A stretch of DNA of 64,000 bases, taken from assembly GCF_964204645.1 (NCBI RefSeq), contig NC_134031.1:6634001-6698000 (forward strand). Reading direction: 5' to 3'. The translations under genes and the position numbers were made by a program. The notes beneath the pieces are model-generated. The model was not told the origin of the DNA, searched no databases, and saw nothing but the letters and a program-made list of their open reading frames with translations. Every line of letters begins with the position of its first letter. Positions within the stretch are counted from its first letter, which is position 1. Below are positions 3,138 to 64,000 of this stretch, one piece after another. The stretch comes from Tubulanus polymorphus (taxonomy: Eukaryota; Animalia; Nemertea).

Positions 3138-3478
3138 ATGGAGAGTAAACAAATACGCAGTGAATTCCTAGCTAGAATCAAAGATACTACAAACGTTAAA
3201 TCTGTTGATTATAAATTTAAAAAGTTAACAGAATTAACAATTTATATGAAATATTTAATTACAAATATTGGAACAATTACTAATAGGTACGGAGATAAAT
3301 TAGTTATCCACTTAGAATATGAAGGATAAAAAGGTTACAAATATACATTCAGAACATATTTACCAGATAGATTTCATAGAATATCTAGTGAGGATATTGA
3401 AGATTTATGTTCTGGTGTTTTTTATTTCATATATAAAGGTAAGAATGAAAAAGGGCACCATGATATAGATTCCGAATA
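3138..3478 (+). pseudogene. Element small ORF X (~113 aa, one in-frame stop), function unknown
   Basis: MESKQ...YEG*KGYKYTFRTYLPDRF...FYFIYKGKNEKG. Homologues at about 1590-1853, 22200-22560 (-) and 34073-34413. Confidence 0.6.
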
Positions 3479-3496
3479 AAAAAATACGTAAAATAA

Positions 3497-3913
3497 ATGG
3501 TAGAATTAAAAGAATATAGAATATTTGTTGATTATAGAAAACTTACAAATTATATATCAAATAATTTACTAGTACAATTAGGACTTACACCAAATAAAAC
3601 TTGTACAAATGTTGATTCTACACCAAATATTATGCCTTTTCACACAATTTTATATTTATTGCAATTTAATTGATCCTAGAAAAATATTTGAAGCAACTAA
3701 AGATAAAATTTGTAATTCTCGTTTATTGAATATTTTACCATTGAAGAATATTAAAGAATTTGGAATGCAAATCAATTATAATTTAACTGAATGTGATTTT
3801 AAACCTTGTATTCCACAATTTGATAATTTTAGATTAGAAGTCATAATGGTTACTTAATTGATTTAAATAATTTTCCCGTAATTTATGAATTAGTTATAAG
3901 ATGTAAAGAGTAA
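3497..3913 (+). pseudogene. Minor capsid protein remnant with an internal deletion
   Basis: Homologous to 62533-63291; lacks about 330 bp that are present at 34510-34840. Confidence 0.8.
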
Positions 3914-3930
3914 TTTTTTGATATATAGAT

Positions 3931-4284
3931 ATGAACATAACGGTAGGCCCGAGTATATGTTTTGGATTTGATTTTAAACGTGAGAAAGAAATGAAATTTA
4001 ACATTAATGATGTAATAATTCATATCAAAAATATTGCATTTTTTGATGAAACAACATTTGAATATGAAATAAATAAAGAAACTTATAATGTAAAAAAGAT
4101 TCCTGATTTGATTAGAAATTCTTTAAGATCTTATGAATTAGATGAAGATTTCATTATCGATGATATTAAAAGAATAATAACTGAAATATATAAAAATGAA
4201 ACAAATAATATTATAAATGTTGAAATGATTATAAATAAGATAACTAAATATTTTGAAGAAGGTGATTTTTTGATAAATAAATGA
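3931..4284 (+). CDS. Element hypothetical protein (homologue of 63308-63649)
   Basis: Shared N-terminus MNITVGPSICFGFDFK and C-terminal INVE.II.KITKYF. Confidence 0.65.
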   Translation: MNITVGPSICFGFDFKREKEMKFNINDVIIHIKNIAFFDETTFEYEINKETYNVKKIPDLIRNSLRSYELDEDFIIDDIKRIITEIYKNETNNIINVEMIINKITKYFEEGDFLINK

Positions 4285-4637
4285 GTGATAATAAGTGGAT
4301 AATAACTGGTTTATATAATGGAGCATTACTATCAGTTGGAATAGTTGTTTATACAATTTTATTGAAGAAAGCATTCAAAATGGGAAATATTAATGTTGAT
4401 AGATTTGATATAAATGATATTTTAAAATTAACATAAGCAGTAACCTTATCTAATTTAACTATTGATTATTTGGGAAATCAAAAATATATTCCTCCTATAA
4501 ACGCATAATTTTTGTTAAATGAATGGCATCTGCATTTATAACTATTATAGGATCGGCAATTGTTAACGCTTTAGCATTTACTGGCGGGGGATATTTATTT
4601 AAGCATATTGATAAGAATGGTTCACTATCAGAACAAA

Positions 4638-14200: not shown

Positions 14201-14603
14201 AGTAATAGGGGTAATGGGCTTTCGGGTTAAAGGTTGAATGGTCGAGTTCATTAAAAACATATATTAAAAGTAATTTAAAACTATAATATATTTTCATAAC
14301 CGTGTGTATTTCAGTTGAATAATAGAATAATTATTATTATTTGAATATATTTGATTATATGAATTTGTGTATTGTAAATAAATCAATTGGTCGCGGAGCG
14401 GAGCGGTAGCGAAGTGGAGCGACCAATTGATTTAATACAATATGCTTTTTAAATTATTGATATCTTAGAATAAATATTTAGTTATAATATAAAATACACA
14501 CGGTTATGAAAATATATTATAGTTTTTAATTACTTTTAATGTTTTGTTTTTAATGAACTCGACCGTTCGACCTTTGATCTGAAAGCCCATTACCCCTATT
14601 ACT
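14201..14603. repeat. 403-bp palindrome (foldback element end)
   Basis: AGTAATAGGGGTAATGGGCTTTC pairs with GAAAGCCCATTACCCCTATTACT; GC-rich central loop. Confidence 0.9.
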
Positions 14604-15525
14604 TGAGTCCCCCCTCGCATAGAGAGCATTGGATCATTGACTTAGAGTCCGGGTCGGGGCACGATAAGCAGCTTGACTTGGGAGACTTCGCGGGTCCATG
14701 CAACGGTAGGGGTGGCCCCGGCTTCTTCTTAAGTAGCTTTTCTAACATCTTAGGCAGATCTTCACTAAGCCAAAGGAGGTACGATGAGCCCTGCACATGT
14801 AATTTTGCAGATTTCTTAGCCGATCCCTTGTAAAGGGTTATGTGGATTGTGCCGAGGGCGTTATCATTAGAGTCGACATATGTCCCACTGAAATGGAGGC
14901 CGTGGTCACCACGGTCTATAGGGTTGCCATAATCGCTCCTTAGTTCGGATAGGAATGATTTGACACTGCTACTTGGGTCTTTGCTTGACAGGTCAATAAC
15001 TACTGACTGAGACTTTTCTGAGATATTAATCTGTTGGTTTAAAAGACCCAGTTCATTTTCTGTTGATGATTTTCGCCGTCTATCCGAGGTTGTGGTATGG
15101 CTTAAGTGTTCTCTGAGATGCACGTAAGCGCTGTTAAGTTTTTGAAATTGTGCAGTAGCATTTGGAATAACGCTGCGATCCGGGTGAGTTTCTCGTGCCA
15201 GGGAGAGGTACTTAACGCGGAGCTCGTCCAGTGTAGGCGGTTTAACGAATTGCAAAGTGTTCATGCTTACTTTTACCTCATTTCCGGGTCTTTGTATGGA
15301 CGGCGCCATTTTGAATTCCGACGATCGGTGTAGTTTCGTCACTATTTCGAGTCTACTCACGACTTAATAAGCTCTGGCGTTTCTATACTTGCATCTGTGT
15401 AAAATCGGAGTATTTAATTTAACCTCTAAGGGTTAATTTCAGTTACTTGACGGTAGTAATCGGTTAGTCTTGCACAAGATTTATAGAGCGACAAATTTCG
15501 CGGCCATGTCCTACTACAGCGCCAT
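14604..15525 (-). mobile_element. LINE-B 5' end (5'UTR plus J-domain ORF1), truncated within the PHD finger by the Polinton-type terminus
   Basis: Near-identical to 44830-45748. ORF 14599-15360 contains LARETHPDR and the start of the PHD (CLSC..MIQCSLC). Confidence 0.9.
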
Positions 15526-23227: not shown

Positions 23228-23687
23228 TGTGGTGATACGTGATTAAGTTTGTAACCCAAGTACGGAGCCCCTGAGGTATGGTGGCTGATTCGGGCCATGA
23301 AAATCTCCTGTATGGCTCAACGAGGAATTTTCGCAGTGGCCCATTTTTGGTTCTCTCGCATGAGAATTCAAAACATTTTGGAAAAAGTTTTGAATTCTCT
23401 TTGAAATATCTACGAACGGTTGCCATGGTAATCGAGAAACCGAAATAAAATAAACCGAAATTTGCAACAGTCAAATGGTTTACGATTGGAAGTTCCTGCT
23501 TCTCGCAGTTTGCTTAATGTTTTGGATCTTTAAACATGTAGATTTATTCGATGATCTGAATGAACTATGAGCGAGGATGTCAATTTGCTCTAGTCGGAGT
23601 GATTGATGTTTAAGTTTAGAATAGTGATTGGTTCGTATCGCGCACTGGTGACAGCCTCCTTCAACCATATACCGAGTAGATCTTCCA

Positions 23688-24423
23688 ATGCAGACACCGC
23701 GTTCACTCTCGCTCGAAGCCATGATAGAAATGCAAAATACGACGCCGAGCCTGATCCAACTTACCGACTGTGACAAATGGCGATTGAAACCTATCCAATG
23801 GTTATATCAGTTCAGCGTCTACATTTACATCTATTTCTTTGCACCGGCAGCAATCATAAGCATAGTTTCAAATGCTTTTACTATTATCATTTTGGACAAA
23901 ATGAGAAACCGATCATATTATCTGATTAAAGCCGTGTCTATCAATGATATGCTCTACTCGCTGTTTGTGTTCATCATGTACCCTGCGAGAACGGCCCATA
24001 TTTACCGGCTTTTAGGCGACATTGTTTTTCGAATGGACGACTGGGCATTTGGAAAAGCTTTCATCAAGGTTTCCAACGGGGGCTATTACATATTCCTTCT
24101 GACTCGTAACTGGTGTGTAATGTTGTTGAGTTTTGAACGGTTGATGATCGTTATGTTTCCGCTGAAATCCCGGATATTTTGGTCAAGAAAAGTCGTCAAT
24201 TCTATATTGATTTTCATACATCTTTTCGCGTTAACGATGTATATACCCCAATATGTTCCCAGGGGGCGCTTTATCTTCATTAAGCCATGTGGTGAAAACG
24301 GACCAAGTATTTCAGTAAACAGAGGGGTTCCACTCATTATGAATCTGAAGGTCCGCCGCTTCCTATTCAATTGGAGTCAGAAAATCTTTAAGTGGACTGA
24401 ATACATTATAGCTGTTATGGTTC
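23688..24423 (+). pseudogene. GPCR copy 2, truncated in TM5 by an LTR element
   Basis: Matches the 367-aa GPCR up to IIAVMV, then switches to LTR sequence at 24424. Confidence 0.9.
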
Positions 24424-30331: not shown

Positions 30332-31283
30332 TTGTCCGTCAAATTAACGCACCAATTTCTGCGTTTCTGCATTTCTGTATTTCTGCGTTTTGAAGAAACC
30401 GACCAGATATCGTTTTCCGCAGGTGCAATTGGGAGATAATTCTAAGCGACGCTTGAAAGTTTTACATGTATGTTCTATTCTGATCTACAATCTTTTCAAA
30501 TACGTGCTCTGTAATAATCCGAAACATCACTGCACCACTAAAATGTATTATCATACATACCCACTACTGATATCTGCAAAACTACCCGTACAGATTGCAT
30601 TCCTGGTAAAACAGAATCAAGACCTTCGTCGATATCGTGAAGGTCCTTCGTTCTATATATGGGATTGAATAGATATATTTCAAATATGTAGATAGATACC
30701 CATCTCTAGAAAAAGTAAAGTATTGTCGATGCTTTGGTTTCAACTTCCATTCTTTATTTGCTAAAATCATTTTCCCTTGCACCAAGAACTGGTAACGTTT
30801 ATGAACGCAATGGTGGAGCTTTGCGCATTCAGCGCTTGTTGGTATCGAAACTAATGATAATAATTCGTTTTCTTACTTGACACTTTACAAATTGAATTTA
30901 ATCTCGGCGCTTTACAAAGTGTAAAGATAAAAATCATAAGATACAATGAAACATTGGGTTATTAAGTAGATATAAAAATATAATCACATTTCAAATGTTC
31001 CTCTAAAAATTACTAGCATCACTTAAGAGCAGATATTAGATTAGCCGCATCTCACTCCAATTATAAGTCTATCTGGTCAAAGAGATCGATGAGTTTTTTT
31101 TAATTTGAATATCTATGTGTATTGGGGACAAAATGTGAAGAAAGTTCTTTAACTGACCATAATATCACTTTTCAAATATGCCTTTTGTTAATATGTTTTG
31201 AGCTTTTATGGAGCGGAAAATAGCCACAGCTACGTCCGGTGGGTGTAGATGAAATACGTGCTATGATATCATTCTCCTGTAAT

Positions 31284-32387
31284 CTATTTCTCGAAACGGG
31301 GCCGAAATAGTTGCATACCAGCTTGTCGGAAATGCGGATTCGTAACGCTATAAATAAAGAAATTAGCGCACGAATCCACCACGGTCATAAGAATGCCGAT
31401 TTTTCGATAAACCATATTAAACCTGTAATTGTTAATATCTATTCCTTGCCCTAAAAGTCGATCAATAAGAAAAATGGATTCGCAGACGATAAAAACGGAC
31501 ACGACTGCGATAACCATTCGCATTACGCGCTGTTCTTTCGTGCCCGATTCTCTCCGGTTGTTCAACTTTGATGACATTTTACTGCGTTTCCTCCTCTTGA
31601 TGAGTAAACTAATAATCAATGCCGCATTTGTTATACATAATGATGTGACTGGAACCATAACAGCTATAATGTATTCAGTCCACTTAAAGATTTTCTGACT
31701 CCAATTGAATAGGAAGCGGCGGACCTTCAGACTTTTGATGAGTGGAACCCCTCTGTTAACTGAAATACTTGGTCCGTATTCACCACATGGCTTAATGAAG
31801 ATAAAGCGCCCCCTGGGGACATATTGGGGTATATACATCGTAACCGCGAAAAGATGTATGAAAATCAATATAGAATTGACGACTTTTCTTGACCAAAATA
31901 TCCGAGATTTCAGCGGAAACATAACGATCATCAGCCGTTCAAAACTCAACAACATTACACACCAGTTACGAGTCAGAAGGAATATGTAATAGCCCCCGTT
32001 GGAAACCTTGATGAAAGCTTTTCCAAATGCCCAGTCGTCCATTCGAAAAAGAATGTCGCCTAACAGCCGGTAAACATGGGCCGTTCTCACAGGGTACATG
32101 ATGAAAACAAACAGCGAGTAGAGCATATCATTGATAGACACGGCTTTAATCAGATAATATGAGCGGTTTCTCATTTTGTCCAAAATGATAATAGTAAAAG
32201 CATTTGAAACTATGCTTATGATTGCTGCCGGTGCATAGAAATAGATGTAAATGTAGACGCTGAACTGATATAACCATTGGATAGTTTTCAATCGCCATTT
32301 GTCACAGTCGGTAAGTTGGATCAGGCTCGTCGTCGTATTTTGCATTTCTATTACGGCTTCGTGCGAGAGTGAACGCGGTGTCTGCAT
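31284..32387 (-). CDS. Intronless rhodopsin-family peptide-receptor-like GPCR (FMRFamide-receptor-like), 367 aa
   Basis: Seven hydrophobic segments. TM1 SN, TM2 ND, TM3 LSFERL..V.FPL (DRY variant), TM6 VFIVCE, TM7 DSCANFFIY, helix 8 FR. Confidence 0.92.
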   Translation of the reverse strand: MQTPRSLSHEAVIEMQNTTTSLIQLTDCDKWRLKTIQWLYQFSVYIYIYFYAPAAIISIVSNAFTIIILDKMRNRSYYLIKAVSINDMLYSLFVFIMYPVRTAHVYRLLGDILFRMDDWAFGKAFIKVSNGGYYIFLLTRNWCVMLLSFERLMIVMFPLKSRIFWSRKVVNSILIFIHLFAVTMYIPQYVPRGRFIFIKPCGEYGPSISVNRGVPLIKSLKVRRFLFNWSQKIFKWTEYIIAVMVPVTSLCITNAALIISLLIKRRKRSKMSSKLNNRRESGTKEQRVMRMVIAVVSVFIVCESIFLIDRLLGQGIDINNYRFNMVYRKIGILMTVVDSCANFFIYSVTNPHFRQAGMQLFRPRFEK

Positions 32388-32738
32388 TGAAAGATCTACT
32401 CGGTATATGGATGAAGGTGGCTGTCACCAGTGCGCGGTACGAACCAATCACTATTCTAAACTTAAACATCAATCACTCCGACTAGAGTAAATTGACATCA
32501 TCGCTCATAGTTCATTCAGATCATCGAATAAATCTGCATCTTTAATGATCCAAACCATTAAGCAAACTGCGAGAAGTAGGAACTTCCAATCGTAAACCAT
32601 TTGACTGTTGCAAATTTCGGTTTATTTTATTTCGGTTTCTCGATTACCATGGCAACCGTTCGTAGATATTTCAAAGAGAATTCAAAACATTTCTGGTTTT
32701 TCTCGCGCGGGAAAACCAAAATGTTTTGAATTCTCACT

Positions 32739-35700
32739 AAGGTAAGAATGAAAAAGGATGTCATGATATAGATTTTGATTAATACAAATTTATCAAAATC
32801 AATTTAAATAAAAAATTTGATATTAAAATGGAAGCAAATAAGAAGTACTACTGTCCAACATGTAAAATCAATATAGATAAATCTCAAAAAGCAAGACATA
32901 ATAATACTAAATCTCACTTAGAGAATAAATTGAAATTAGAATATAAAAAATGATATATTAGAAACTAAATTAGAAGAATCAAAGAATGAAAAAGAAATAT
33001 ATAAATGTGATACATGTAATCAATCATTCAGTAAAAAAAGATATTATAAAGAACATTTAAAATCTAAAACTCATATTAGAAATATAAACAATGATATTTT
33101 AGGGGAAGACTATTTTGATAAAGATATTAGTAAGAAACAAAGCACGATTAAAAGAATAAAAAATAAATTAATCAATAAAAGACCAAACATGGAAGATGTT
33201 AGAAATTATATTAATTCATTAGATAATGTAAAGGCAATAGAAATATCTGAAGCATTTAAAAGTGATATTGGACCAGCTGCTATTAGATTTAAATTTTATA
33301 AAGGCAAAACGTTAGAAAATATGAAAAATATTACAAAAATAATAACTGACGTAGGATATTCCTAAAATTAGTATATCTGCTAAAGTTTAATTTATAAAAT
33401 CTGAAGATAAATCAATATATGATATAAATTCTCATTCACATAATATTATTTTAAAAGAACATATAGATGATAGATTAGATAAATGTTATAATGAAATAAA
33501 AAGTAAAATAGAGAGATATTTTGAAGGATCGGGTTTAATATTTGATGAAATAATATTTATGACTTTACATGTGAGTAATTGTATATATGTCGTTCTAGAT
33601 CAAAGGTCGAACGGTCGAGCTCATAAAAAAAACAAATATTAAAAGTAATTTAAAACTATAATATATTTTCATAGCCGTGTGTATTTTGTATTATAAATAA
33701 ATATTTATTCTAAGATATTAATTATTTAAATTTTAAAAGCATATTGTGTTAAATCAATTGGTCACGTCACTTCGCTCCGCTCCCAATTGATTTAATTACA
33801 ATACACAATAAAGAATATATTCATATAATCAAATATATTCTAATAATTATTATTATTCTATTATTTAATCTATAATACACACGACCATGAAAAAATGTAT
33901 TATAGTTTTAAATTACTTTTGATATTTGTTTTTTTAATGAGCCCAATCCCAATCTTTCAACCTTTGATCTAGAACGACATATATACAATTACTATAATAT
34001 TTTATATATGGATATTTTAAATATAAATAACATATTAATGAAAACAATTTTGATAAAAAAATTGATATCAAAATGGAGAGTAAACAAATACGCAATGAAT
34101 TCCTAGCTAGAATCAAAGATACTACAAACGTTAATTCTGTTGATTATAAATTTAAAAACTTAACAGAATTAACAATTTATATGAAATATTTAATTACAAA
34201 TATTGAAACAATTACTAATAGGTATGGAGATAAATTAGTTATCCACTTAGAATATGAAGGATAAAAAGGTTACAAATATACATTCAGAACATATTTACCA
34301 GATAGATTTCATAGAATATCTAGTGAGGATATTGAAGATTTATGTTCTGGTGTTTTTTATTTCATATATAAAGGTAAGAATGAAAAAGGGCACAATGATA
34401 TAGATTTCGAATAAAAAATACGTAAAATAAATGGTAGAATTAAAAGAATATAGAATATTTGTTGATTATAGAAAACTGACAAATTATAAATCACATAATT
34501 TACTAGTACAATTAGATAGAGAATTTAAAAATTGTGTAGATTTAAAATTAGTTGATATTAGTTTATGTAATTGTTTTTATAATATATCAGATGAAAGTCT
34601 TGAACATAGACTGTTTATGATTTATGATAGAAATAAAAATCAATGATATCATATGTTTTTAAAACTAGGATTATATAATTAAGAAACATAAGCGCAAGAA
34701 ATTAATAGAAGAGCTACTTTATTATCTGCTGGATTTAAAATCAGATTTTTAAAAAGTGATACTAATAATAAAGTAAGAATAAAGTTAGCTAATATCGAAC
34801 AACACAAATTTATGGTAAGAAAACCATTAGCTAAACTGCCAGGACTTACACCAAATAAAACTTGTACAAATGTTGATTCTACACCAAATATTATGCCTTT
34901 CACACACTTTTATAGTTATTGAAATTTAATTGATCCTAGAAAAATATTAGCAACTAAAGATACAATTTGTAATTCTTGTTTATTGAATATTTTACCATTG
35001 AAGAATTTTAAAGAATTTGGAATGCAAATAAATTATAATTTAACTGAATGTGATTTTAAACCTTGTATTCCACAATTTGATAATTTTAGATTAGAAGTAA
35101 GAAATCATAATAGTTACTTAATTGATTTAGATAATTTTCCCGTAATTTATGAATTAGTTATAAGATGTAAAGAGTAATTTTTTGATATATAGATATGAAC
35201 ATAACGGTAGGCCCGAGTATATGTTTTGGATTTGATTTTAAACGTGAGAAAAAAATGAAATTTAACATTAATGATGTAATAATTCATATCAAAAATATTG
35301 CATTTTTTGATGAAACAACATTTTAATATGAAATAAATAAAAGAAACTTATATTGCAGAAAAAATTCCTGATTTGATTAGAAATTCTTTAAGATCTTATG
35401 AATTAGATGAAGATTTTATTATCGATGATATTAAAAGAATAATAACTGAAATATATAAAAATGAAACAAATAATATTATAAATGTTGAAATGATTATAAA
35501 TAAGATAACTAAATATTTTGAAGAAGGTGATTTTTTGATAAATAAATGAGTGATAATAAGTGGATAATAACTGGTTTATATAATGGAGCATTACTATCAG
35601 TTGGAACAGTTGTTTATACAATGTTATTGAAGAAAGTATTCAAAATGGGAAATATTAATGTTGATAGATTTGATATAAATGATATTTTAAAATTAACATT

Positions 35701-35985
35701 AGCAGTAACCTTATCTAATTTAACTATTGATTATTTGGGATAACAAAAATATATTCCTCCTATAAACGCATAATTTTTGTTAAATAAATGGCATCTGCAT
35801 TTATAACTATTATAGGATCGGCAATTGTTAACGCTTTAGCATTTACTGGCGGGGGATATTTATTTAAGCATATTGATAAAAATGGTTCATTATCAGAACA
35901 AAAAAGACATAACTTAGCATTAGAGAAATATAATAAAACTGCAGATGAATATAGAGAAAAGAGAAATATAGCTGCAAAGCAGCGA
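32739..35985 (+). mobile_element. Degenerate Polinton-related remnant, duplicate of 1810-4635 with a more complete minor capsid gene
   Basis: Colinear with 1810-4635; palindrome 33574-33993; mCP pseudogene 34431-35177; small ORFs 35546-35743 and 35788-35988. Confidence 0.85.
33574..33993. repeat. 420-bp palindrome, copy of 2638-3057
   Basis: AGTAATTGTATATATGTCG...CGACATATATACAATTACT. Confidence 0.9.
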
Positions 35986-43478: not shown

Positions 43479-45530
43479 CTAGTGATATCTGGAGTGCCTG
43501 GTGAACAGTTGTAAAGCTCTGCGGACACCAGTCGCTAAGTTGTTGGCGAATCTCCTGATTCCGTCTCTCTTGTTGAGATGGATCGAGTCCTTGTAGAAAC
43601 GTTGTTGATCATCAAGGTTGTCATTGTTCACTACGGTGGTGTTTCTGTCGTGCGCGGCTAATGATACGATATAAGAGTTAAATGATCTCGACTGGATGTC
43701 GAAGGTTCGCGTATCGAATCTTGGCGGAATTAATGAGACAACGAGTTTCACACCTGGAAAGTAGTCCTTGATTTTATTAACTAGGTTGATGTATTAGTCT
43801 ACACAAGCACTACCGCTATTGAGGTTTCTTATATCGTTGGTGCCAACATGCAGTATGATGCAGGACACACGCTCATGCTGGATTTTGTCTACGACATCCG
43901 ATGCTTGCCTGATGGTGAAAGCGCGCTTAGAGAATACTTTGCAAGCATCTTTGACGAAACGTTTCGGATCTATATATCTGGTATTCGAATCGCCGATAAT
44001 GTAAACGCTCCGATAATTCCGACTTTGACTTAGTGAGGCCTCACGAGGTGTCGGGCTGCAGGTGTTGATATGTCGGTCGTTGCTGATTGTGTCATTATCG
44101 GAGTCGACAATCAGATTCCTGTGGCCATCAGTATCACTAGAAGCGAGGAGACTATTTTCGTGTAAAGACTCCTCCCTTGCTACCGGTGAATTGTTCGCAG
44201 CCGTAGATTTCAAATCATTGAGCAGCTCTAGGGCTGACATGACTTGAGCGTTCGTATTGCACGTTTTCTCCAGGATATCTTTGACGCGATTATCATTTCT
44301 GTCTACTAATTTCTTTAGTTGTTCGGACGATTTCTGCATGATCGGTACAGCGGTAGATAAATCCGAGACATGATCTACACGCTTAACTAGGTCATCTAGA
44401 CGGTCATGTATTGAGTTCATGTGTGACAATTTGGCACACTGGCCAGCTTGTTGCGAGACGTTAACCAGCTGTGATTCAATCGATCTAAATAGGTCAAGAA
44501 TATCCGAACTGTCCAACACTGACTGGATGGTTTGGCACCCGATGGAGACGCGATTGGACTCCGCGATGTCTACTTGACACCCAATGGTGGTGAACTTCTT
44601 ACTGATCGAATGCATTATGTCATGCGTTAAGTGATCGGGCTCCACATTGGATGAAGCGTTCACTTGACACCCTGCGGTGGTGTTTCCATTGAGGGCGGTA
44701 ACTGGAGCGCAACTTATCAGCGGTTGGTTTGGCTCCCCAGCATTACTGCATGGGGGGCAGATGTAAATTTCATCCATATTTGACGTAGCTTTAGAGAGGT
44801 CGTCCTCTGATAGCCTGGAGCATTTGTTGTGAGTCCACCCCTCGCATAGAGAGCATTGGATCATTGACTTAGAGTCCGGGTCGGGGCACGATAAGCAGCT
44901 TGACTTGGGAGACTTCGCGGGTCCATGCAACGGTAGGGGTGGCCCTGGCTTCTTCTTAAGTAGCTTTTCTAACATCTTAGGCAGATCTTCACTAAGCCAA
45001 AGGAGGTACGATGAGCCCTGCACATGTAATTTTGCAGATTTCTTAGCCGATCACTTGTAAAGGGTTATGTGGATTGTGCCGAGGGCGTTATCATCAACAT
45101 ATGTCCCACTGAAATGGAGGCCGTGATCACCACGGTCTATAGGGTTGCCATAATCGTTCCTTAGTTCGGATAGGAATGATTTGACACTGCTATTTGGGTC
45201 TTTGCTTGACAGGTCAATAACTACTGACTGAGACTTTTCTGAGATATTAATCTGTTGGTTTAAAAGACCCAGTTTATTTTCTGTTGATGATTTTCGCCGT
45301 CTATCCGAGGTTGTGGTATGGCTTAAGTGTTCTCTGAGATGCACGTAAGCGCTGTTAAGTTTTTGAAATTGTGCAGTAGCATTTGGAATAACGCTGCGAT
45401 CCGGGTGAGTTTCTCGTGCCAGGGAGAGGTACTTAACGCGGAGCTCGTCCAGTGTAGGCAGTTTAACGAATTGCAAAGTGTTCATGCTTACTTTCACCTC
45501 ATTTCCGGGTCTTTGTATGGACGGCGCCAT
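43479..45530 (-). pseudogene. LINE-B ORF1: J domain, unknown alpha/beta domain, PHD finger, coiled coil, SGNH esterase (two in-frame stops)
   Basis: YLSLARETHPDR..AQFQKLNSAY; CLSC..CSLCEGWTHNKC..CPPC; IGDS, HVGTND, DSIHL. The three ORF pieces share one frame, and the stop at 45051 is Gly in the 14.8-kb copy. Confidence 0.88.
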
Positions 45531-45748
45531 TTTGAATTCCGACGATCGGTGTAGTTTCGTCACTATTTCGAGTCTACTCACGACTTAATAAGCTCTGGCG
45601 TTTCTATACTTGCATCTGTGCAACATCGGAGTATTTAATTTAACCTCTAAGGGTTAATTTCAGTTACTTGACGGTAGTAATCGGTTAGTTTTGCACAAGA
45701 TTTATAGAGCGACAAATTTCGCGGCCATGTCCTACTACAGCGCCACTG

Positions 45749-53784: not shown

Positions 53785-54745
53785 TTGTCCGTAAAATTAA
53801 CACACCAATTTCTGCGTTTCTGCATTTCTGCATTTCTGCATTTCTGCGTTTTGAAGAAACCGACCAGATATCGTTTTCCGCAGGTGCAATTGGGAGATAA
53901 TTCTAAGCGACGCTTGAAAATGTTGTACATGGTATGTTCTATTCTGATCTATAATCATTTCAAATACTTGCTCTGTAATAAGCCGAAACAGCACTGCACT
54001 ACTAAAATGTATTATCATACATGCCTATTACTGATATCTGCAAAACTATCCGTACAGATTGCATTCCTGGTAAAACAGAATCAAGTCCTTCATCGATATC
54101 GTGAAGGTCCTTCATTCTATATATGTGATTGAATAGATATATTTCAAATATGTAGATAGATACCCATCTCTAGAAAAAGTTAAGTATTATCAATGCTTTG
54201 GTTTCAACTTTCATTCTTTATTTGCTAAAGTCATTTTCCCTTGCACCAAGAACTGATAACGTTTATGAACGCAATCTGGTGGAGCTTTGCGCATTCAGCG
54301 CTTGCTGGTATCGAAACTAATGATAATAATTCGTTTTCTTACTTGACACTTTACAAATTGAATTTAATCTCGGCGCTTTACAAAGTGTAAAGATAAAAAT
54401 CATAAGATACAATGAAACATTGGGTTATTAAGAAGATATAAAAATATAATCACATTTCAAATGTTCCTCTAAAAATTACTAGCATCACTTAAGAGCAGAT
54501 ATTAGATTAGCCGCATCTCACTCCAATTATAAGTCTATCTGGTCAAAGAGATCGATGAGTTTTTTTAATTTGAACATCTATGTGTATTGGGGACAAAATG
54601 TGAAGAAAGTTCTTTAACTGACCATAATATCACTTTTCAAATATTCCTTTTTTTAGTATGTTTTGAGCTTTTTTGGAGCGGAAAATAGCCACAGCTACGT
54701 CCGGTGGGTGTAGATGAAATACGTGCTATGATATCATTCTGTAAT

Positions 54746-55852
54746 CTATTTCTCGAAACGGGGCCGAAATAGTTGCATACCAGCTTGTCGGAAATGCCGA
54801 TTCGTAACGCTATAAATAAAGAAATTAGCGCACGAATCCACCACGGTCATAAGAATGCCGATTTTTCGGAAAACCATATTAAACCTGTAATTGCTAATGT
54901 TAAATCCTTTCCCTAAAAGTCGATCAATAAGAAAAATCGATTCGCAGACGATAAAAACGGATACGACTGCGATAACCATCCGCATCACTCGCTGTTCTTT
55001 CGTGCCCGATTCTCTCCGGTTGTTCAACATTGATGATATTTTACTGCGGTTCCTCCTCTTGAATAGTAAACTGATAATCAATGCCGCATTTGTTATACAT
55101 AATGATGTGAGTGGAACCATGACAGCTATAATGTATTCAGTCCATTTAAAGATTTTCTTACTCCAATCTAATAGGAAGCGGCGGACCTTCAGACTCTTGA
55201 TAAGTGGAACCCCTCTGTTAACTGAAATACTTGGTCCGTATTCTCCACATGGCTTAATGAACACAAAGCGCCCCCTGGGAACAAGTTGGGGTATATACAT
55301 CGTTACCGCGAAAAGATGTATGAAAATCAATATAGAATTGACGATTTTTCTTGACCAAAATATCCGGGATTTCAGCGGAAACATTACGATCATCAACCGT
55401 TCAAAACTTAACAACATTACACACCAGTTACGAGTCAGAAGGAATATGTAATAGCCCCCGTGGGAAACCTTGATGAAAGCTTTTCCAAATGCCCAGTCGT
55501 CTATTCGAAAAACAATATCACCTAAAAGCCGATAAACATGGGCCGTTCTCGCAGGGTACATGATGAACACAAACAGCGAGTAGAGCATATCATTGATAGA
55601 CACGGCTTTAATCAGATAATATGAGCGGTTTCTCATTTTGTCCAAAATGATAATAGTAAAAGCATTTGAAACTATGCTTATGATTGCTGCCGGTGCATAG
55701 AAACAGATGTAAATGTAGACGCTGAACTGATATAACCATTGGATAGGTTTCAATCGCCATTTGTCACAGTCGGTAAGTTGGATAAGGCTCGTCGTCGTTG
55801 TATTTTGCATTTCTGTCACCGCTTCGTTCGCGAGTGAACGCGGTGTCTGCAT
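54746..55852 (-). CDS. Intronless FMRFamide-receptor-like GPCR, diverged paralogue, 368 aa
   Basis: Intact ORF with the same 7TM motifs as 31284-32387. Confidence 0.92.
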   Translation of the reverse strand: MQTPRSLANEAVTEMQNTTTTSLIQLTDCDKWRLKPIQWLYQFSVYIYICFYAPAAIISIVSNAFTIIILDKMRNRSYYLIKAVSINDMLYSLFVFIMYPARTAHVYRLLGDIVFRIDDWAFGKAFIKVSHGGYYIFLLTRNWCVMLLSFERLMIVMFPLKSRIFWSRKIVNSILIFIHLFAVTMYIPQLVPRGRFVFIKPCGEYGPSISVNRGVPLIKSLKVRRFLLDWSKKIFKWTEYIIAVMVPLTSLCITNAALIISLLFKRRNRSKISSMLNNRRESGTKEQRVMRMVIAVVSVFIVCESIFLIDRLLGKGFNISNYRFNMVFRKIGILMTVVDSCANFFIYSVTNRHFRQAGMQLFRPRFEK

Positions 55853-56164
55853 TGAAAGATCTACTCGGTATATGGATGAAGAAGGCTGTCACCAGTGCGC
55901 GATACGAACCAATCACAATCCTACTCAAATGACAATCACTCCGACTAGCAAATCGACATCATCGCTCGTAGTTCACTCAGATCATCGAATAAATCAAAAT
56001 GTCCCGTATAAATCTTTAAGCAAACCGCGAGAAGCAGGAATGTCCAATCGCAAACCATTTAGCTGTTGCAAATTTCGGTGCATATTAGTAATTGTAATAT
56101 GTGGGTTTTCAGATCAGAGGGCGAGACACCACTCGTCACCACAAGAAATTTTTTTCCCTTATAA

Positions 56165-59100
56165 ATGGGGGAGAATGAACACCAACCAGAAAACAATAAT
56201 GTCAATAAAAATCAATATTATTGTCAATATTGTAAAAAATACATCGATACATCTCATAAAACACGACATGAAAAAACTGCAAATCATATAAAAAATGTAA
56301 TAGATTTTGAAACTCCAGAAAATTCTAATGAAAGAAAAGAAAGATTAGAAAATATGAATGTGGATGAAATAAAATGCGAAGTTTGTAATGAATTTATAGT
56401 AAAAAGGAATTATAATAGACATCTCGAATCACAAAAACACCACCAAAATTTGAGTAATAATGTTTTAGGAAAAGATTATTTTGATGATAAACCTCAAAAA
56501 GTAAAAAAAACCAACTTCAAAAGCTAAATCCATTTCAAATAAACCTTACATGGAAAATGTTAGAAATTATATTGATTCACTAGAAATAAAAGATACAATT
56601 GAAATCTTAGAAACATTACATAGTAAAATTGGTCCTGCAGCTATTATATTTAGATTTTTTAAAGGTACAACAATAGAAGATTATAGTAAATTTAATGAAA
56701 TAATAGAAAAAATACTAGATTTGATAACAGATGTTGAATATCCAAAAATTAGTATCTCTGGGAAAGTAAGTTTTATAAAGTCAGAAGAAAAAATGGATTA
56801 TAATACTCAAACACTCTCTGAAGAAATAATTTCAAAAACACAAATAAAAGAGAAGTTAGAAAAAATATTTAATGAATTTAAACGTCATATTGAAGAAAGA
56901 TATTTTGAAGGTTCTGGCTTAACATTGAATGAAATTATATATTTAGATTTAAATGTTTATAATACAAAAAGAAATAAAACATCAAAAAGTAATAAAATGT
57001 TTAAAAATGATTCAAACTTTACAACAGAAAAGGATATTAAAGCATCATCTTATATTAAATTACCATTTACAACAAAAGCAGTAATAAATATTCAAAATGA
57101 AGATAATAAATGTTTTCTATGGTCAATTATTAGTTGCTTACATCCAACACAGGAAAATGTTTGTAGAATAACAGATTATCGTAAATATGAAACATTATAT
57201 AAAATTGATCAATATCCAGTAACTATAAAAATGATTCCTAAAATAGAAAAAGTTAATAATTTAAAAATAAATGTATTCGAATTAATGCAATTACCAAAGA
57301 CAAAAGGTGAAAATATTAAAGATTATACATTGGAAGCTTTATATTTAACAGAATATTATGATGATGAAAATGCTATAGATTTGTTATATTATAAAAAAGA
57401 TGAAAATGAACATTATATGTGTTTAAAACAAATTGATTTATTCTTTAGAACAGAAAGTGATCATCATCGTAAAATTTATCTATGTAGAAAATGTTTATCT
57501 AAATTCTGACTGAGAATACATTATTAAAACATAAAGAATTATGTGATAATAAAGATTTTTGTAAATTAATAATGCCAACAGAAAAAGATTATAAATTGAA
57601 ATTTACTAATCATAAATTTAAAAATATTGTTCCATTTGTAATTTATGGGGATTTTGAATCGTTGAATAAAGAATAATTGAATTAAATGAAAACACAATAC
57701 AAGACCCACCAATTATAAATACAATTAAAAAAGTTCATCAAAGAGCTGCTGCTTATGGAATTTATATAAAATCAAATTATTCCGAATTATATGAAAGTCA
57801 ATATATTTCTTTTAGAGGTGAAAATGTAGTTAATGATTTTTGTGATAAAATGATTGAATTAGAAAGTGATTTTGCAAAATTATTAAACAAAAATAAAAGA
57901 ATAGTTATGACAAAAGAAGATGAAATTGATTTTAATTATGCAACTCATTGTTGTTACTGTGAAAAACGTTTTTATTCATTTGATAAAAAAGTTAGAGATC
58001 ATGATCATTTAAATTCAAAATATCGTGGAGCTGCTCATGAAGATTGCAATTTACAAGCTAAAAAGGTAAATTTCGTACCAATATTATTTCATAATTTATC
58101 AGGATATGATACCCATCTATTTATTAAACAATTATCGGGAAAATTGCGCGCAATTAATCAAGAAATAGAAGAATATAATGCTATGAATGAAGCAAATGTA
58201 AGAAAATATGATTTTAAACTATTAGCTAAAACATCTGAAAATTATATTTCATTTCAATTTGGTTGCATTAGATTTTTAGATTCTTATAGATTTCTAGCAA
58301 GTTCATTAGATAATTTATCGTAAAGTTTAGTTGATAATGATTTTGTTATAACTCGATATTATTATCCAAATGAACAAGATTTTAAATTATTGAGATATAA
58401 AGGCGCAATTCCTTATTCATTTTATAAAACACATGATGATCTTAATGTAACAGAATTATTAAAAGATCAATTTTATGATCAATTAAAAAATGATTACGTG
58501 AAAGATGAAGTGTTTAATAGAACATTAAATATTTGGAACCATTTTAAGATGAAAAATCATGGTGAATTAGTTGATTTATATTTAAAATCAGATGTTATGA
58601 TATTGGCTGACATATTTGAAAAATTTAGAGAAGTTAATTTGAATCATTTTAATGTTGATCCTTGTTATTGCTACTCTAGTCCTGGTTTAACCTGGCAATG
58701 TGGTTTAAAATATACAAATGTAGAATTAGATTTATTAAAAGAACCAGATATGGTTTTATTATTTGAAAAATCAATTAGAGGTGGAATTAGTGGTGTTATG
58801 GGAGATAGGTATTTTAAAGCAAATGATGAATATAAATTATTATATATTGACGCCAATAATTTATATGGTTGGGCAATGATGCAACCTCAACCACATAAAA
58901 ATTTTATATTAACAGAAGTTGAAAATGGTGAAAAAACTGATTGGGAAAACGCAATTGCGAGTTTAAAAGATGAAGCACCAATTGGTTATTTCTTTGTAGT
59001 TGATTTAGAATATCCTGAAAATATAAAGTTTAAAACAAGAAACTTACCTTATTGCCCAGAACATTTAACTGTAGATGATAGTTATTTAAGTGAATACCAA

Positions 59101-61163
59101 AAGAAAATAAAACCGAAAGATCATGTTTTTACAGAAAAATTAATACTTACTCAAAATAATAAATACAATTATATTGTTCATTATAGAATGTTAAAATTTT
59201 ATCTAAAACAAGGAATGAAATTAAAGAAAGTACATAGATATATTGAATTTAATCAATCGAAGTGGTTAGAAAAATATATAGATTTCAATACTCAACAGAG
59301 AACCATTTCAAAAACAGATTTTGAAAAAGATTTTTTCAAATTGATGAACAATAGTTTTTATGGAAAAACATGTGAAAATATTAGAAATAGAAATGATATT
59401 GAATTAGTAAATAATTCTGAAAGATTAAGACATTTACAATCAAGTCCTAGACATTTAGGAAATAAGAGATTTGAAGATTATTTAACCGCAGTAAAATTAA
59501 AAAGAACTTCAATGAAATTTAATAAACCTATATTCATTGGTTCAACTGTTTTAGAAATATCAAAATTATTAATGTATGATTTTTATTATAATGTTTTACA
59601 ACCACTTTTTGGGGAAAAGCATATTGAAATATTATATTTTGATTCTGTAACAGCTGATACACCAATATTATTAAAATACAATAACCAAATATTAATAAGA
59701 AGAATTTCAGAAATAATTCCAAAACAAAATGAACTTTATATTTCATATGGTGAAAAAGAATTAATACAAATAAATGGTTTAATAGATGTTTGGACAAGAA
59801 ATGGATGGAAAAAATTAAAGAATATTATTAGACATAAAACAAATAAGAAAATCTATAGAGTTAGAACTAAATTAGGATTTGTAGATGTTACAGAAGATCA
59901 TAGTTTAATTAAACGAAATGGTGATGAAATAAAACCAACTGATATAAAAATTGGAGATGAATTATTACATAAAAGATTTTTCCAAAGAATGAATCATATG
60001 TCATTTGATGAAATAATTGATAATATTTATAATATAGAACCCGAAACATTAGAAGAAAAAGAATAATTTATCAAAGGATTTTTCATGGGCGATGGTTCAG
60101 CAGGTGTGTATAATTATGTTTGGGGTGATAAATATTGTTGGTATTTATGCAATCAAGACTTAAAATTATTAGAAAGAATTAAGAAATTCTGTGAAGAAGT
60201 TTATCCAAATAAAACATTTAGAATCATGGATGTTATGAAATCAACAGCAGTTTATAGAATACTTGTAAATAATCCTAAAGATTTTGCTATAAAATATAAT
60301 GATGAATTCTATATTCATGCAATAGTGAAAAGTAATACTTCAACTAAAGAAAAAATAGTACCAGATTATGTATTAAATACAAAAAATAATTTAAGAAAGT
60401 GGTTCTTCATTGGATTCTATGCAGCAGATGGTTCAAAAAGTTTCCAAAACCGCAAAACAATATCCTTTGCTCAAAAAGGAAAAGTTGCTATATCAGGATT
60501 GAATATATTATGTAGTTCATTAGGATTTAATATGAATATAGAATTAATTAAATCTAAACCAAATTGTTTTAATTTAAGGCATGTAGAAAATGAGTTAACA
60601 GAAGAAGTTAAAGATTTATTTGAAATATATAACCCAACTGACTATGTTTATGATTTATCAACAGATGATGGAACATTCAATTCTGGGTTCCCATTAATCC
60701 AAAAAATACCGATAGTTACATACTAAAAATCAAGACAAATGATATAACAAAAGACTTAAAAACATTAAAACATTATTTTGATTTTAGCAATTATCCCAAA
60801 GATCATGAACTATTTAGCAATGATAATAAAAAGATTCCTGGTAAATTTAAAGATGAATTAGGAGGTGATGAAATGATTGAATTTGTTGGGATAAGAAGTA
60901 AAATGTATAGTTACAGAACAAAAGATCATGAAGCTAAAAAGTTAAAAGGAATAACAAAACATGTGGTTGATAAACATATAGAATTTCAAGATTATATAAA
61001 GTGTTTATATAACTCAATTGTAATGAAACATAAAATGAATTGTTTAAGATCAGAAGATCATGAGATGTACATTAATGAAGTTGAAAAAACTAGTTTGAAT
61101 CCATTTGATGATAAAAGGCATATTTCAGATGATGGTATAAAAACATTACCTTATGGCTATTAA
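56165..61163 (+). pseudogene. polB: Protein-primed family B DNA polymerase with intein (about 6 stops/frameshifts)
   Basis: Two N-terminal zinc fingers; NIQNEDNKCFLW (OTU-like region); DFES (ExoI); RDHDHL..YRGAAH..CN (HNH/EndoVII-like); FHNLSGYD; RFLDS; DANNLYGWAM; KLMNNSFYGK; YFD|TDS; GKFKDE; SKMYSY; DDKR. Confidence 0.95.
59644..60707 (+). mobile_element. Intein with LAGLIDADG homing endonuclease, in PolB motif C
   Basis: YFD|SVTADTPILL (block A), VTEDHSL (block B), GFFMGDGS and GFYAADGS (blocks C/E), YVYDLST (block F), then Q-K-N|TDS once one A is restored in the A6 run at 60701-60706. Confidence 0.93.
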
Positions 61164-62464
61164 AACATAAAATCAATATCATCAAACTCGAAATCACTAT
61201 TGTCTTCTTCATTTTCATTTAATTGTTTAGGTTCTTCTTCTTCCATTCCATTTTTTTCATTTAAATAAAGTTCTATCTTTTTCCACATTTCATCTCGCTC
61301 TCTTTGTTTCTTTTTGTTTGTTAATTCATCAAATGGAATTATAATATCTAGGTTTAAATAATTTACAATCTTATTTAAAAAGAATTCATAATTTATTGAA
61401 TCTGTTATTCTATTTTCTAAATGATACATTAATATTTGTTTGAATATTTTTTTTATATTTTCTATATCTTCTTCTGTTAATTTAGGTCTTTCATAATAAT
61501 CGTTAAATAATAAATATAAATACATTTTCTTTTCTTTTGTGTTAAATGTTGACGGAATAATTGTATTTATAATATCTTTTTTAGTTATTTCACCATTTTC
61601 ATTTTCTGTTATTTTCATTTCTTCAAGCCATTGCATATATTCTAATGTATGATCTTCCATAGAAAATATCTTAAAAATTTCATCAAGATAATTTAATTTT
61701 GGTTCTATGAGAAAATCTCTAGTTTTTTCTTCACCCCATAAATTCCTTTGCCATCCACATTCATTACAAAATATAACAGGACCTTCTTGTCTTAAATACT
61801 CATAAATACATTGTGGGCATTTTTGTTTATAAATTATTGGTAATAGATCTTCATTAAGCTCTTGGTATTTTCTTACGTTTTCTTTATGTTTTATTGTTCT
61901 ATTATGTAGATTTGAATTACTTGTTGTAATAATCAATTTACAATATTTACAATAATATGTTTTTCTTGTTAATTCATTATATTGTTTTTCTAACTTTTCA
62001 ACTGTTTCTTCATTATCTGGTAACGTTTTCCCATATTTTATTTTTTCTAATAAATTATTTTTTCTTTCATTGAATTCAGTTTCAAATTTATTAGAAATTT
62101 TATCTATATGTACTTTACGAAATTGATGATTCTCCCAATCTTCTATATTTTCGGGGTTATATTTTATTCGACAAGGCTCACAGAAATGATCTTTTATATT
62201 ATCCTTATCATAGAATAAGAAAGGTCTTTTCCAAATAATTTCAGGTTCAACTTCAACAGAATTACTATCAACATTAGCCGTTGCACCATTAATTCTACAC
62301 TTCTCTGAATGTTTTTTAACATAATTTCTTGAGAATAATTTATTACATTTTAGACAGTTTAGTTTAGGGGGTTTATAATTTTCTTCATGTTTTTTCATAT
62401 GTCGAGCCATATTACTTTTACTTTGAAGTTCACCACAAATTTCGCATGCTATCTTCACTTCCAT
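61160..62464 (-). CDS. Multi-zinc-finger protein with C-terminal poxvirus VLTF3-like (late transcription factor) region, 434 aa
   Basis: Several CxxC..H fingers; CPQC-x13-CNECG ribbon; C-terminal IFKQI..SINYEFFLNKI..L..KKKQRERDEMWKKI resembles the VLTF3 C-terminus. Confidence 0.65.
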   Translation of the reverse strand: MEVKIACEICGELQSKSNMARHMKKHEENYKPPKLNCLKCNKLFSRNYVKKHSEKCRINGATANVDSNSVEVEPEIIWKRPFLFYDKDNIKDHFCEPCRIKYNPENIEDWENHQFRKVHIDKISNKFETEFNERKNNLLEKIKYGKTLPDNEETVEKLEKQYNELTRKTYYCKYCKLIITTSNSNLHNRTIKHKENVRKYQELNEDLLPIIYKQKCPQCIYEYLRQEGPVIFCNECGWQRNLWGEEKTRDFLIEPKLNYLDEIFKIFSMEDHTLEYMQWLEEMKITENENGEITKKDIINTIIPSTFNTKEKKMYLYLLFNDYYERPKLTEEDIENIKKIFKQILMYHLENRITDSINYEFFLNKIVNYLNLDIIIPFDELTNKKKQRERDEMWKKIELYLNEKNGMEEEEPKQLNENEEDNSDFEFDDIDFMF

Positions 62465-62532
62465 TTATTAAGGAAAAATTTTATTAAAATTAATTTTTAG
62501 TGATGAGCGGTAATTTTTTTATGTTATAAATA

Positions 62533-63291
62533 ATGGTAGAATTAAAAGAATACAGAATATTTGTTGATTCTAGAAAACTTACAAATTATAAATCTCATAA
62601 TTTACTAGTACAATTAGATAGAGAATTTAAGAATTGTGTTGATTTAAAATTAGTAAATGTAAGTTTATGTAATTCTTTTTATAATATATCGGATAAAACT
62701 ATTGAACATAGAGCCTTTTTAATTTTTGATAAAAATAAAGATGAATGGTCCTATATATATTTAAAACCGGGGTTATATAATTTAGATACATTAGTACAAG
62801 AAATTAATAGAAAAGCCTGGCACAAATTAGGTAGTAGTTCTGGGTTTGGTATTAGATTTTTAAAAAGTGAAAGTTCTGTTAGAATAAAGATAAGGTTGTC
62901 TAATAGTGAAAAACATAAATTTATGGTAAAAAAACCTATAGCTAAACTGTTAGGAATTCTTCCAGATAGATCTTTTACAAATATTGATGCTACACCAAAC
63001 TTAATACCTTACACACATTTCTATATTTATTGCAATTTAATCGATCCTACAAAAACATTCGAAGCAACTAAAGATATAACTTGTAATTCTGGTTTATTAA
63101 ACATTTTACCATTGAAGAATGTTAAAGAATTTGGAATGCAAATAAATTATAATTTAACAGAATGTGATTTCAAACCATGCATTCCTCGTTTTAATAATTT
63201 TAGATTAGAAATTAGAAATCATAATGGATACTTAATTGATTTAAATAATTTCCCTGTAATTTATGAATTAGTTATAAGATGTAAAGAGTAA
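62533..63291 (+). CDS. Minor capsid (penton-like single jelly-roll) protein, 252 aa
   Basis: Polinton/PLV mCP pattern: IFVDSR, NSFYNI, PGLYN, FYIYCNLI, LLNILP, FRLEIRNHNGYLIDLNN..VIYEL. Confidence 0.8.
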   Translation: MVELKEYRIFVDSRKLTNYKSHNLLVQLDREFKNCVDLKLVNVSLCNSFYNISDKTIEHRAFLIFDKNKDEWSYIYLKPGLYNLDTLVQEINRKAWHKLGSSSGFGIRFLKSESSVRIKIRLSNSEKHKFMVKKPIAKLLGILPDRSFTNIDATPNLIPYTHFYIYCNLIDPTKTFEATKDITCNSGLLNILPLKNVKEFGMQINYNLTECDFKPCIPRFNNFRLEIRNHNGYLIDLNNFPVIYELVIRCKE

Positions 63292-63307
63292 TTTTTTCAC
63301 TATATAA

Positions 63308-63649
63308 ATGAATATAACTGTTGGACCGAGTATATGTTTTGGGTTTGATTTTAAACATGGTAAAGAAATGAGAATTAAACTAAATGATGTAATTACTGAT
63401 ATAAAAAGTAAATCATTTAACAATGCATCAATGATTGATAAAGAAAATTATAATATAGAAAAAGTAATTGATTTAATTAAATCACCTTTAGAATATTATG
63501 AATTAAATGAAGATGGAATTATTGATGATATCAAAAACATATTATCCAAAATATATGATAATCATAAAACTAGTAATGAAATAAATGTTGAAATAATCAT
63601 CACTAAGATAACAAAATATTTTGATGATAGTAATTTTTTTGATAAATAA
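63308..63649 (+). CDS. Element hypothetical protein, 113 aa
   Basis: TAAATG start; conserved in remnants at 3931 and about 35195. Confidence 0.7.
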   Translation: MNITVGPSICFGFDFKHGKEMRIKLNDVITDIKSKSFNNASMIDKENYNIEKVIDLIKSPLEYYELNEDGIIDDIKNILSKIYDNHKTSNEINVEIIITKITKYFDDSNFFDK

Positions 63650-63871
63650 ATGAGTGATAATAAGTGGATAATAACTGGATTATATAATGGCGCATTATTA
63701 TCAGTTGGAACTGTTGGTTATTCAATGGTATTAAAAAAAGTATTTAAAATGGGAAGTGTTAATGTTGATAGATTTGATATAAATGATATTTTAAAGTTAA
63801 CATTAGCAGTTACTTTATCTAATTTAACTATTGATTATTTGGAAAAACAGAAATATATTCCTCCCATATAA
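63650..63871 (+). CDS. Small hydrophobic conserved Polinton/adintovirus protein, 73 aa
   Basis: Two hydrophobic segments, ending DYLEKQKYIP; abuts the previous ORF by TAA-ATG; copies at 4281 and 35546. Confidence 0.7.
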   Translation: MSDNKWIITGLYNGALLSVGTVGYSMVLKKVFKMGSVNVDRFDINDILKLTLAVTLSNLTIDYLEKQKYIPPI

Positions 63872-63896
63872 ATGCATAATTTTTTTTGCTAAATAA

Positions 63897-64000
63897 ATGG
63901 CTTCTGCAATTATAACTATTATAGGATCGGCAATTGTTAACGCTTTAGCATTTACTGGTGGTGGTTATTTATTTAAACATATTGAAAAAAAATAGTTCAT
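63897..64000 (+). CDS. Small conserved Polinton/adintovirus protein (N-terminus)
   Basis: MASAIITIIGSAIVNALAFTGGGYLF; longer copy at 35788-35988. Confidence 0.65.

Follow-up and report, generated by a model that had tools for sequence, protein, structure and literature searches.

A decayed LAGLIDADG intein at the catalytic motif C of a protein-primed Polinton-type polymerase from an animal genome

A window of 64,000 nucleotides of Tubulanus polymorphus DNA (the whole stretch that was analysed, in whose numbering all positions are given) carries a broken protein-primed DNA polymerase (pPolB) gene of Polinton type, the catalytic motif C of which is interrupted by an intein. It is considered, at a probability of roughly three in four, that this is a dead homing intein resident in an animal genome, likely derived from a single entry out of a PolB of giant-virus type and likely kept by homing between copies. 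A wider reading, that of a living homing-intein family in animal germlines which came from giant viruses, jumped between the two main Polinton polymerase classes, is spreading still and drives DCDS and DTDA escape, is put forward tentatively, its chances falling a little short of even.

Anatomy of the insert and state of the gene

The first-pass annotation of this DNA had described motif C as split into YFD and TDS by an insert with Ser1, TEDH, two LAGLIDADG-like motifs and VYDL, and all of these were located between 59644 and 60707 (Table 1). In the reading frame covering 58324-60066 the polymerase continues via ...ILYFD into SVTADTP at 59644. At the other end K-N/T-D-S (the slash marks the insertion boundary here and below) is read directly at 60702-60716 in the downstream frame, to which the ATG at 60873 belongs, and the earlier placement of the downstream extein TDSYILK in that frame is thus confirmed. 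The proposal that the insert ends in K-N once one A is restored holds as regards the break near 60690-60710 and the K-N/TDS reading behind it; the in-frame stop at 60064-60066 had been missed. The ends of the intein are set by host reads which skip it exactly and by the intein-free relatives P0311, P0312 and P0314, which are intact, share 71-73% identity with the N-extein piece and read IMYFDTDSYILK at the insertion site.

Table 1. Features of the intein, its polymerase gene and the surrounding DNA
Feature	Position	Strand	Remarks
Host intronless rhodopsin-family GPCR adjoining element	54746..55852	-	likeness to three paralogues stops at 56087
Polinton-type AT-rich segment	56088..64000	.	~24% GC; extends past right window edge
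Protein-primed DNA polymerase gene, broken	56165..61163	+	pieces colinear with intact P0311 at 44-78% identity
Polymerase frame changes	near 56500-56525, 57500-57520, 57660-57680, 60690-60710	+
Polymerase in-frame stops	58321-58323 and 60064-60066	+
N-extein piece ending ...ILYFD	58324..59643	+	PF03175, 57.6 bits
Intein, pol-c type (PolB motif C)	59644..60707	+	1064 bp, ~350 residues; Hint halves flank two-motif LAGLIDADG endonuclease
Block A, Ser1 nucleophile, SVTADTP	59644..59664	+	directly after ...ILYFD
Block B TxxH, TEDH	59890..59901	+	aligned with relatives; T83 and H86 near-invariant (44-sequence alignment)
In-frame stop within intein	60064..60066	+	directly 5' of LAGLIDADG helix 1
LAGLIDADG-type helix 1, FIKGFFMGDG	60067..60096	+	acidic residue present
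LAGLIDADG-type helix 2, FFIGFYAADG	60403..60432	+	acidic residue present
Block F, VYDL	60646..60657	+	aligned with relatives
Intein 3' end with frame break	60690..60710	+	K-N, then +1 Thr (60708-60710), in downstream frame
C-extein starting TDSYILK	60708..61163	+	75-80% to P0311, P0312, P0314
Viral-type ORF, candidate minor capsid (penton) protein	62533..63291	+	resembles unnamed viral clusters 0.98, recognition below threshold

Both domain types claimed for the insert were recognised over cut-off by profile searches, in which the intein was translated with X at its internal stop: TIGR01445 (intein_Nterm) gave 35.3 bits against a cut-off of 24.5, and PF14528 (LAGLIDADG_3) gave 30.8 bits against 22.5. 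PF14890 reached E 5e-7 and 30 bits, under its cut-off of 35.8. Together with the protein search given below, these scores lie far outside what chance would yield. The fold obtained from the single sequence had a pLDDT of 38.6, and an alignment-based AlphaFold2 model was used instead (44 sequences as input; mean pLDDT 90.5, pTM 0.91). Among solved structures the top Foldseek matches of this model were PI-PkoII (E 9e-15), TliVMA, PhoVMA, PI-PfuI, PI-SceI, mini-inteins and I-DmoI, and its best viral structure matches were polymerase entries of a phycodnavirus, a pandoravirus and a marseillevirus. In a PDB profile search made with alignment A1 the extein columns outweighed the rest, and its result was left out of the evidence. 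Class 1 inteins end in Asn before a Ser, Thr or Cys; in the window copy the terminal Asn is followed by Thr, and all seven intact pPolB relatives end in N/TDS. By its anatomy, as read from the sequence and the predicted fold, the insert is a LAGLIDADG intein of the pol-c class.

The penultimate residue of the window intein is Lys and not His, the latter being typical without being universal. The earlier view that Lys-Asn constitutes a non-canonical end is rejected, because among 213 motif C inteins of other PolBs (near-duplicates included) Lys is penultimate in 86 and His in 94, and two of the seven intact pPolB relatives have Lys as well. It can be said that penultimate Lys is a common state of the pol-c allele and is not disqualifying.

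Six breaks were counted in the polymerase gene, two of them within the intein; the annotation had rightly noted the last frame break, and four more lie outside the intein. At the internal stop 254 of the 259 covering host reads differ from the window, and host reads differ in length at three of the polymerase frame breaks. Some of the breaks stand in homopolymer runs and may be assembly errors. The window copy of the intein-bearing polymerase is a pseudogene, and open intein-bearing copies are present among its relatives. The GC content of the intein (24.8%) equals that of its exteins (23.9 and 25.2%), so that a recent arrival in this lineage is rejected and an old one is indicated.

The element in host DNA and its occupied and empty copies

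At the edge of the element GC content falls from ~38% to 24%, likeness to the three paralogous GPCR regions ends, and read depth at ~56085 goes from 22 to ~830 in X6, a whole-genome shotgun run of the same species from a separate study, of which ~12% was read. The clusters nearest to the flanking GPCR are all eukaryotic (commonest Chordata, Mollusca, Nemertea, Cnidaria or Platyhelminthes), and the window contains kringle exons, LINE-type reverse transcriptases and, in four copies, an intronless rhodopsin-family GPCR, all of which points to an animal host. Five further decayed fragments of the element family lie among these host genes, and the family is multi-copy in host DNA. No terminal repeat was seen at the left edge of the element (56088), and the start of the polymerase, 77 bp away from the junction with host DNA, gives this end a truncated look. 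Pfam scanning of the element ORFs within the window brought no match to an integrase, a packaging ATPase or a cysteine protease, and neither a major capsid gene nor terminal repeats were identified within the window, past the right edge of which the element extends. The candidate penton ORF gave a weak DUF5901 match, and no solved structure came up as its relative.

Several observations concern the surroundings of the element. Four paralogous GPCR regions (1-889, 23446-24423, 30537-32629 and 54001-56087) are 92-94% identical to the last of them and lose their likeness at the same point, and internally deleted Polinton fragments (~1890-4624 and 32828-35890) lie close behind two of these regions, which suggests that a unit of GPCR and element was copied by segmental duplication. 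Duplicated DnaJ-domain ORFs (14599-15360 and 45051-45581, both on the minus strand) adjoin LINE-type elements with endonuclease, reverse transcriptase, PHD and GDSL-like domains. Directly 5' of five element ORFs stands the motif AATTTTTT-N(2-9)-TAAAT (56147-56166, 62512-62531, 63290-63309, 63632-63651 and 63878-63898), which has 9 matches in the window against 1.12 expected, a number reached in none of 100 shuffles; a similar string lies upstream of the minus-strand ORF at 62464. We take this motif to resemble the TAAAT initiators of poxvirus type, and it may hint that the element is transcribed with the help of a large virus. In run X1 the summed contig depth over 56085-64000 is ~100 times that of the host flank and far above X2, X4 and X6, summed depth not being copy number; the excess may reflect expression, amplification or an artefact.

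In X6 the depth of the intein is 131-268 per bin versus 19-56 on the host flanks, which are themselves duplicated, and this places the intein in several to a few tens of copies. Identity of at least 99% was found in 191 of 4832 aligned reads, as in an aged repeat family. Exactly 1064 bases are skipped by 66 reads of the same run, with ~43 start points, which join 59641 to 60706; the junction has four letters of ambiguity, and its range includes the exact cut 59643/60708, that is, YFD/TDS. Depth just outside the intein amounts to 605 and 570, and by comparison with the depth inside it some 1/4 to 1/2 of the copies aligning at 80% are occupied. A marine run (X5, 0.05 share) yielded 12 short pieces and was left out. 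Copies with and without the intein, which the annotation had proposed to look for, were thus both found, the empty ones as these 66 host reads and the three intein-free relatives, the intact occupied ones as seven pPolB relatives.

It might be supposed that a free virus or a symbiont is the source of the polymerase with the intein and that mis-assembly joined it to host DNA, a reading which is given a very small probability. No record among the listed reads and contigs spans the 56087 junction, several frame breaks lie in homopolymer runs, where assembly errors are frequent, and sampled window words reached a share of half or more in only two runs of one study; against this, in the same-species run from the other study the depth of the intein is several times that of the flanks and identity varies widely, the five decayed fragments of the family sit among host genes, and the stop codons in the copy would be untenable for a replicating virus.

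Relatives of the intein and its lateral movement

Among 3809 candidates the intein search gave 282 longer proteins at E<=1e-10. Eight of the 120 listed matches (of 282) are pPolBs, including the five best, at 63-46% identity, and seven of these eight hold complete inteins of 337-354 aa, all at xxD/TDS. Of the shorter matches, 21 of 34 are nearest to pPolB inteins. Insertion was precise, as gaps of intein size, exactly 346 and 339 aa, were found in two clusters. Pattern scans added one further pPolB with an intein (L026, broken inside it), which was the only pPolB among 11 metagenome loci, while none of 15 viral-contig loci was a pPolB; the P0002 scan of viral contigs and the P0003 scan of metagenomes returned nothing.

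The eight pPolB inteins form one group in every intein tree, with a support of 100 in a 204-row FastTree from which near-identical cluster members had been removed beforehand, SH-aLRT 99 in 66 rows, and 100/100 in both 62 and 18 rows; all of these trees are unrooted. The C-terminal signature FxxG[FST]PL occurs in all eight and in 15 of 196 others. At E<=1e-30 the polymerase region of P0002 has 5321 relatives; a dragonfly is the source of one among the 120 listed, and the site is occupied in 4 of these 120, empty in 106 and unassigned in 10. In a 53-row polymerase tree, the rows of which were picked to include intein carriers (4 rows without a site match being skipped), the 10 intein rows need 10 changes, 8 of them forced by starred branches. 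The weak PF03175 score suggests that the window polymerase is of the Beta class, and P0005 appears to be of the Alpha class. As far as protein comparison goes, the invasion is that of a clade common to several distant pPolB lineages and not a one-off in this genome.

Two side observations may be added on the relatives. P0313 is a close relative among the pPolBs which UniRef assigns to Sulfurimonas sp., and it is probably a Polinton-type sequence binned into a bacterial genome. Related inteins also stand at D/T-D sites in type II topoisomerase-like proteins and in a protein bearing PF03747 (P0007, P0109, P0043, L012 and L013), from which it follows that the lineage has moved between unrelated genes.

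The window intein is 50% identical over 339 aa to that of P0005, a pPolB of another class, with an N-extein score of 43, which is the noise level. It is also 42-46% identical to the inteins of three PF00136 polymerases whose N-extein scores are again at noise level (41-50), and each of these polymerases, or a member of its cluster, matches giant-virus MAG contigs at 99.9-100% identity. The closest inteins outside the pPolBs thus include some in PolBs on such contigs. Inteins so alike in polymerases so unlike require lateral movement. The first-pass annotation had proposed that an intein of RNA-primed PolBs invaded a protein-primed polymerase by way of a giant virus; the likeness of the inteins across barely alignable exteins upholds the exchange itself. 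Its direction, from giant virus to Polinton, is likely, as judged from the diversity and the nesting in unrooted trees that offer no strongly supported donor clade.

Separate trees of intein and extein had been suggested as well. Those obtained place the pPolB inteins in one clade; the intein tree otherwise runs broadly parallel to the polymerase tree, P0005 excepted, and the AU test does not reject a tree that puts P0005 outside the remaining pPolB inteins (p-AU 0.42). The pattern is therefore due in part to long vertical descent. Given this p-AU, tree topology does not establish that the intein jumped from one pPolB class to another, a claim which rests on the identity of the inteins set against that of the exteins. 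A giant-virus clade is sister to the pPolB inteins weakly, at 81/78 in the 18-row tree, and is not so grouped in the other three. Between the DNA of the window site and that of giant-virus sites 9-15 of 18 bases match, mostly in shared codons, which points to no donor.

A source other than a giant virus, such as a protist polymerase delta or a protist Polinton-like virus, or a transfer from Polintons to some giant viruses, is held to be quite improbable. Room for it is left by unrooted trees with an unsettled sister group and by a related intein in a nuclear polymerase delta of the green alga Chloropicon primus (P0116), although P0116 lies far from the pPolB clade in three trees (204, 66 and 62 rows). 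It is further opposed by the scarcity of the C-terminal signature outside the pPolB inteins, by the DNA pattern for this signature, which matched 15 viral contigs, 13 of them named giant-virus MAGs, and by the far greater diversity of the 196 non-pPolB inteins than of the eight pPolB ones. The algal protein (UPQ97335.1) carries a motif C intein of 342 aa which groups with PolB inteins of viral contigs.

Probable homing between copies and significance of the intein family

Class 1 inteins splice by an acyl shift at Ser1 aided by block B, by transfer to the +1 Thr and by cyclisation of the terminal Asn. In intact copies of the present intein Ser1, the block B His, the terminal Asn and the +1 Thr would splice the precursor and restore the active site of the polymerase, and since the +1 Thr also supplies the T of the catalytic DTD, exact splicing is predicted to be needed for an active enzyme. 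The LAGLIDADG domain would cut empty alleles at the DNA for D/TDS, repair from an occupied copy would carry over the intein together with its flanks, and empty alleles with an altered site would survive. The first jump may have occurred when a Polinton and a giant virus were replicating in one cell, eased perhaps by D-T-D-S, the one stretch common to both polymerase classes.

A putative footprint of homing was found in the P0003 cluster, which has 136 members; the 15 listed lie on contigs of 57 kb to 1 Mb, and this suggests a repeat family in a eukaryotic assembly. Of these 15, 7 are occupied and 6 empty, and 2 are fragments that do not reach the site. The empty alleles are mostly ~99% identical to the occupied ones. 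Compared with P0003, the six remaining occupied alleles show 1-3 differences in 84 flanking residues and the six empty ones 12-19 in 84; distally, five of the empty alleles differ at 2-7 of ~700 residues and one at 33. Their sites read YTD/CDS, YFD/TDA or YGD/TDA, as against YMD/TDS in the occupied alleles. At the protein level, and in 13 of 136 members of one cluster, which may stem from a single assembly, such a patch of divergence round the empty sites fits flanks converted along with the intein, sites that survived through resistance, or the two together. Against homing stands that P0142 is empty with the amino acids of the site unchanged, and YMD/TDS is kept in 11 of the 40 empties examined.

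A change of motif C from DTDS to DCDS was observed in 20 of the 106 empty polymerases, and DTDA in several others (P0003 clade). It is possible that these changes are an escape from the endonuclease, or that they mark older sub-lineages.

The intein may, on the other hand, be real and yet a passenger which entered once long ago, descended vertically and lost its homing, the empty alleles arising by ordinary recombination with intein-free elements. This is thought unlikely, in spite of the broad agreement of the intein and polymerase trees outside P0005, the base composition that speaks against a recent arrival and the persistence of empty sites with unchanged amino acids, for both LAGLIDADG acidic residues are intact in 8 of 8 pPolB inteins, the same intein clade occurs in P0005, whose polymerase is barely alignable with that of the window, and the empty alleles diverge only round the site. 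Maintenance by homing between copies is accordingly preferred as the likely course.

The occurrence of motif C inteins in giant viruses and archaea, stated by the first-pass annotation, agrees with the available part of PMC549080, where an intein of 351 aa is reported in the Mimivirus PolB at YGD/TDS, the archaeal pol-c position. Compared with the position III inteins of giant-virus and archaeal PolBs, as far as they are set out there, the window intein has the same site before TDS, Ser1, the block B Thr and His, two LAGLIDADG motifs, the terminal Asn, the +1 Thr and a similar length. Unlike them it resides in a protein-primed polymerase (PF03175), theirs being PF00136; the residue before Asp varies in the pPolB set (YFD, YMD, YLD, ASD, YSD, YGD), the pPolB inteins form their own clade, and the present one is found in an animal nuclear genome, in a multi-copy element with occupied and empty alleles.

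Insertions of HNH and VSR nucleases in Polinton pPolBs of nematodes, oomycetes and molluscs are described in the accessible text of PMC10748475, and in that of PMC11071308, which cites it, endonuclease insertions in Polinton pPolBs are suggested to be intein invasions. Those insertions are likewise nuclease domains within a Polinton pPolB, as far as that text goes, whereas here the catalytic motif holds a complete Hint and LAGLIDADG intein, which empty alleles lack precisely; PMC10748475 has in its main text no match for intein, LAGLIDADG, homing or Hint. Polintons/Mavericks and adintoviruses, in the portion of PMC8502044 at hand, are similar in having a pPolB with an OTU-like region, an AT-rich gene-dense segment and multiple copies in an animal genome, and the same portion of its main text gives no match for intein, homing or endonuclease. 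In the literature covered, to which subscription journals, Repbase entries and supplementary files did not belong, no account of a Hint and LAGLIDADG intein in a Polinton polymerase was found.

The annotation had called inteins essentially unknown in metazoan nuclear genes, and in the available parts of PMC5784728 and PMC8529194 they are said to be absent from metazoan genomes; PMC12220804 and PMC5718144, to the same extent, mention inteins only in general. Nuclear and animal-virus residence is already known, according to the accessible text of PMC5784728 and PMC549080, from Prp8, VMA1 and RNA polymerases of fungi and protists and from iridovirus inteins. In contrast to the nuclear inteins of fungi and protists, the window intein resides in an animal genome and is carried by a virus-like element instead of a host gene. 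The novelty lies in the setting, namely a clade of pol-c inteins that occupies protein-primed polymerases and is both resident and polymorphic in the genome of an animal.

An intein family in an animal genome qualifies the statement that metazoans have no inteins, as it is worded in the available parts of PMC5784728 and PMC8529194, though its carrier is a virus-like element, and it directly supports the intein invasion of Polinton polymerases suggested in the accessible text of PMC11071308. One intein allele is found across RNA-primed and protein-primed PolBs which have little beyond D-T-D-S in common at the site. With occupied and empty alleles both present in many copies of a single genome's element family, it becomes possible to measure homing, co-conversion and target escape directly, and the pPolB intein clade offers new inteins and LAGLIDADG nucleases that come from animal cells. 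Homing requires the two DNAs to share a cell, and these inteins therefore bear independently on whether animal Polintons meet giant viruses, and the family, if the proposed history is true, would be a molecular record of animal Polintons replicating alongside giant viruses.
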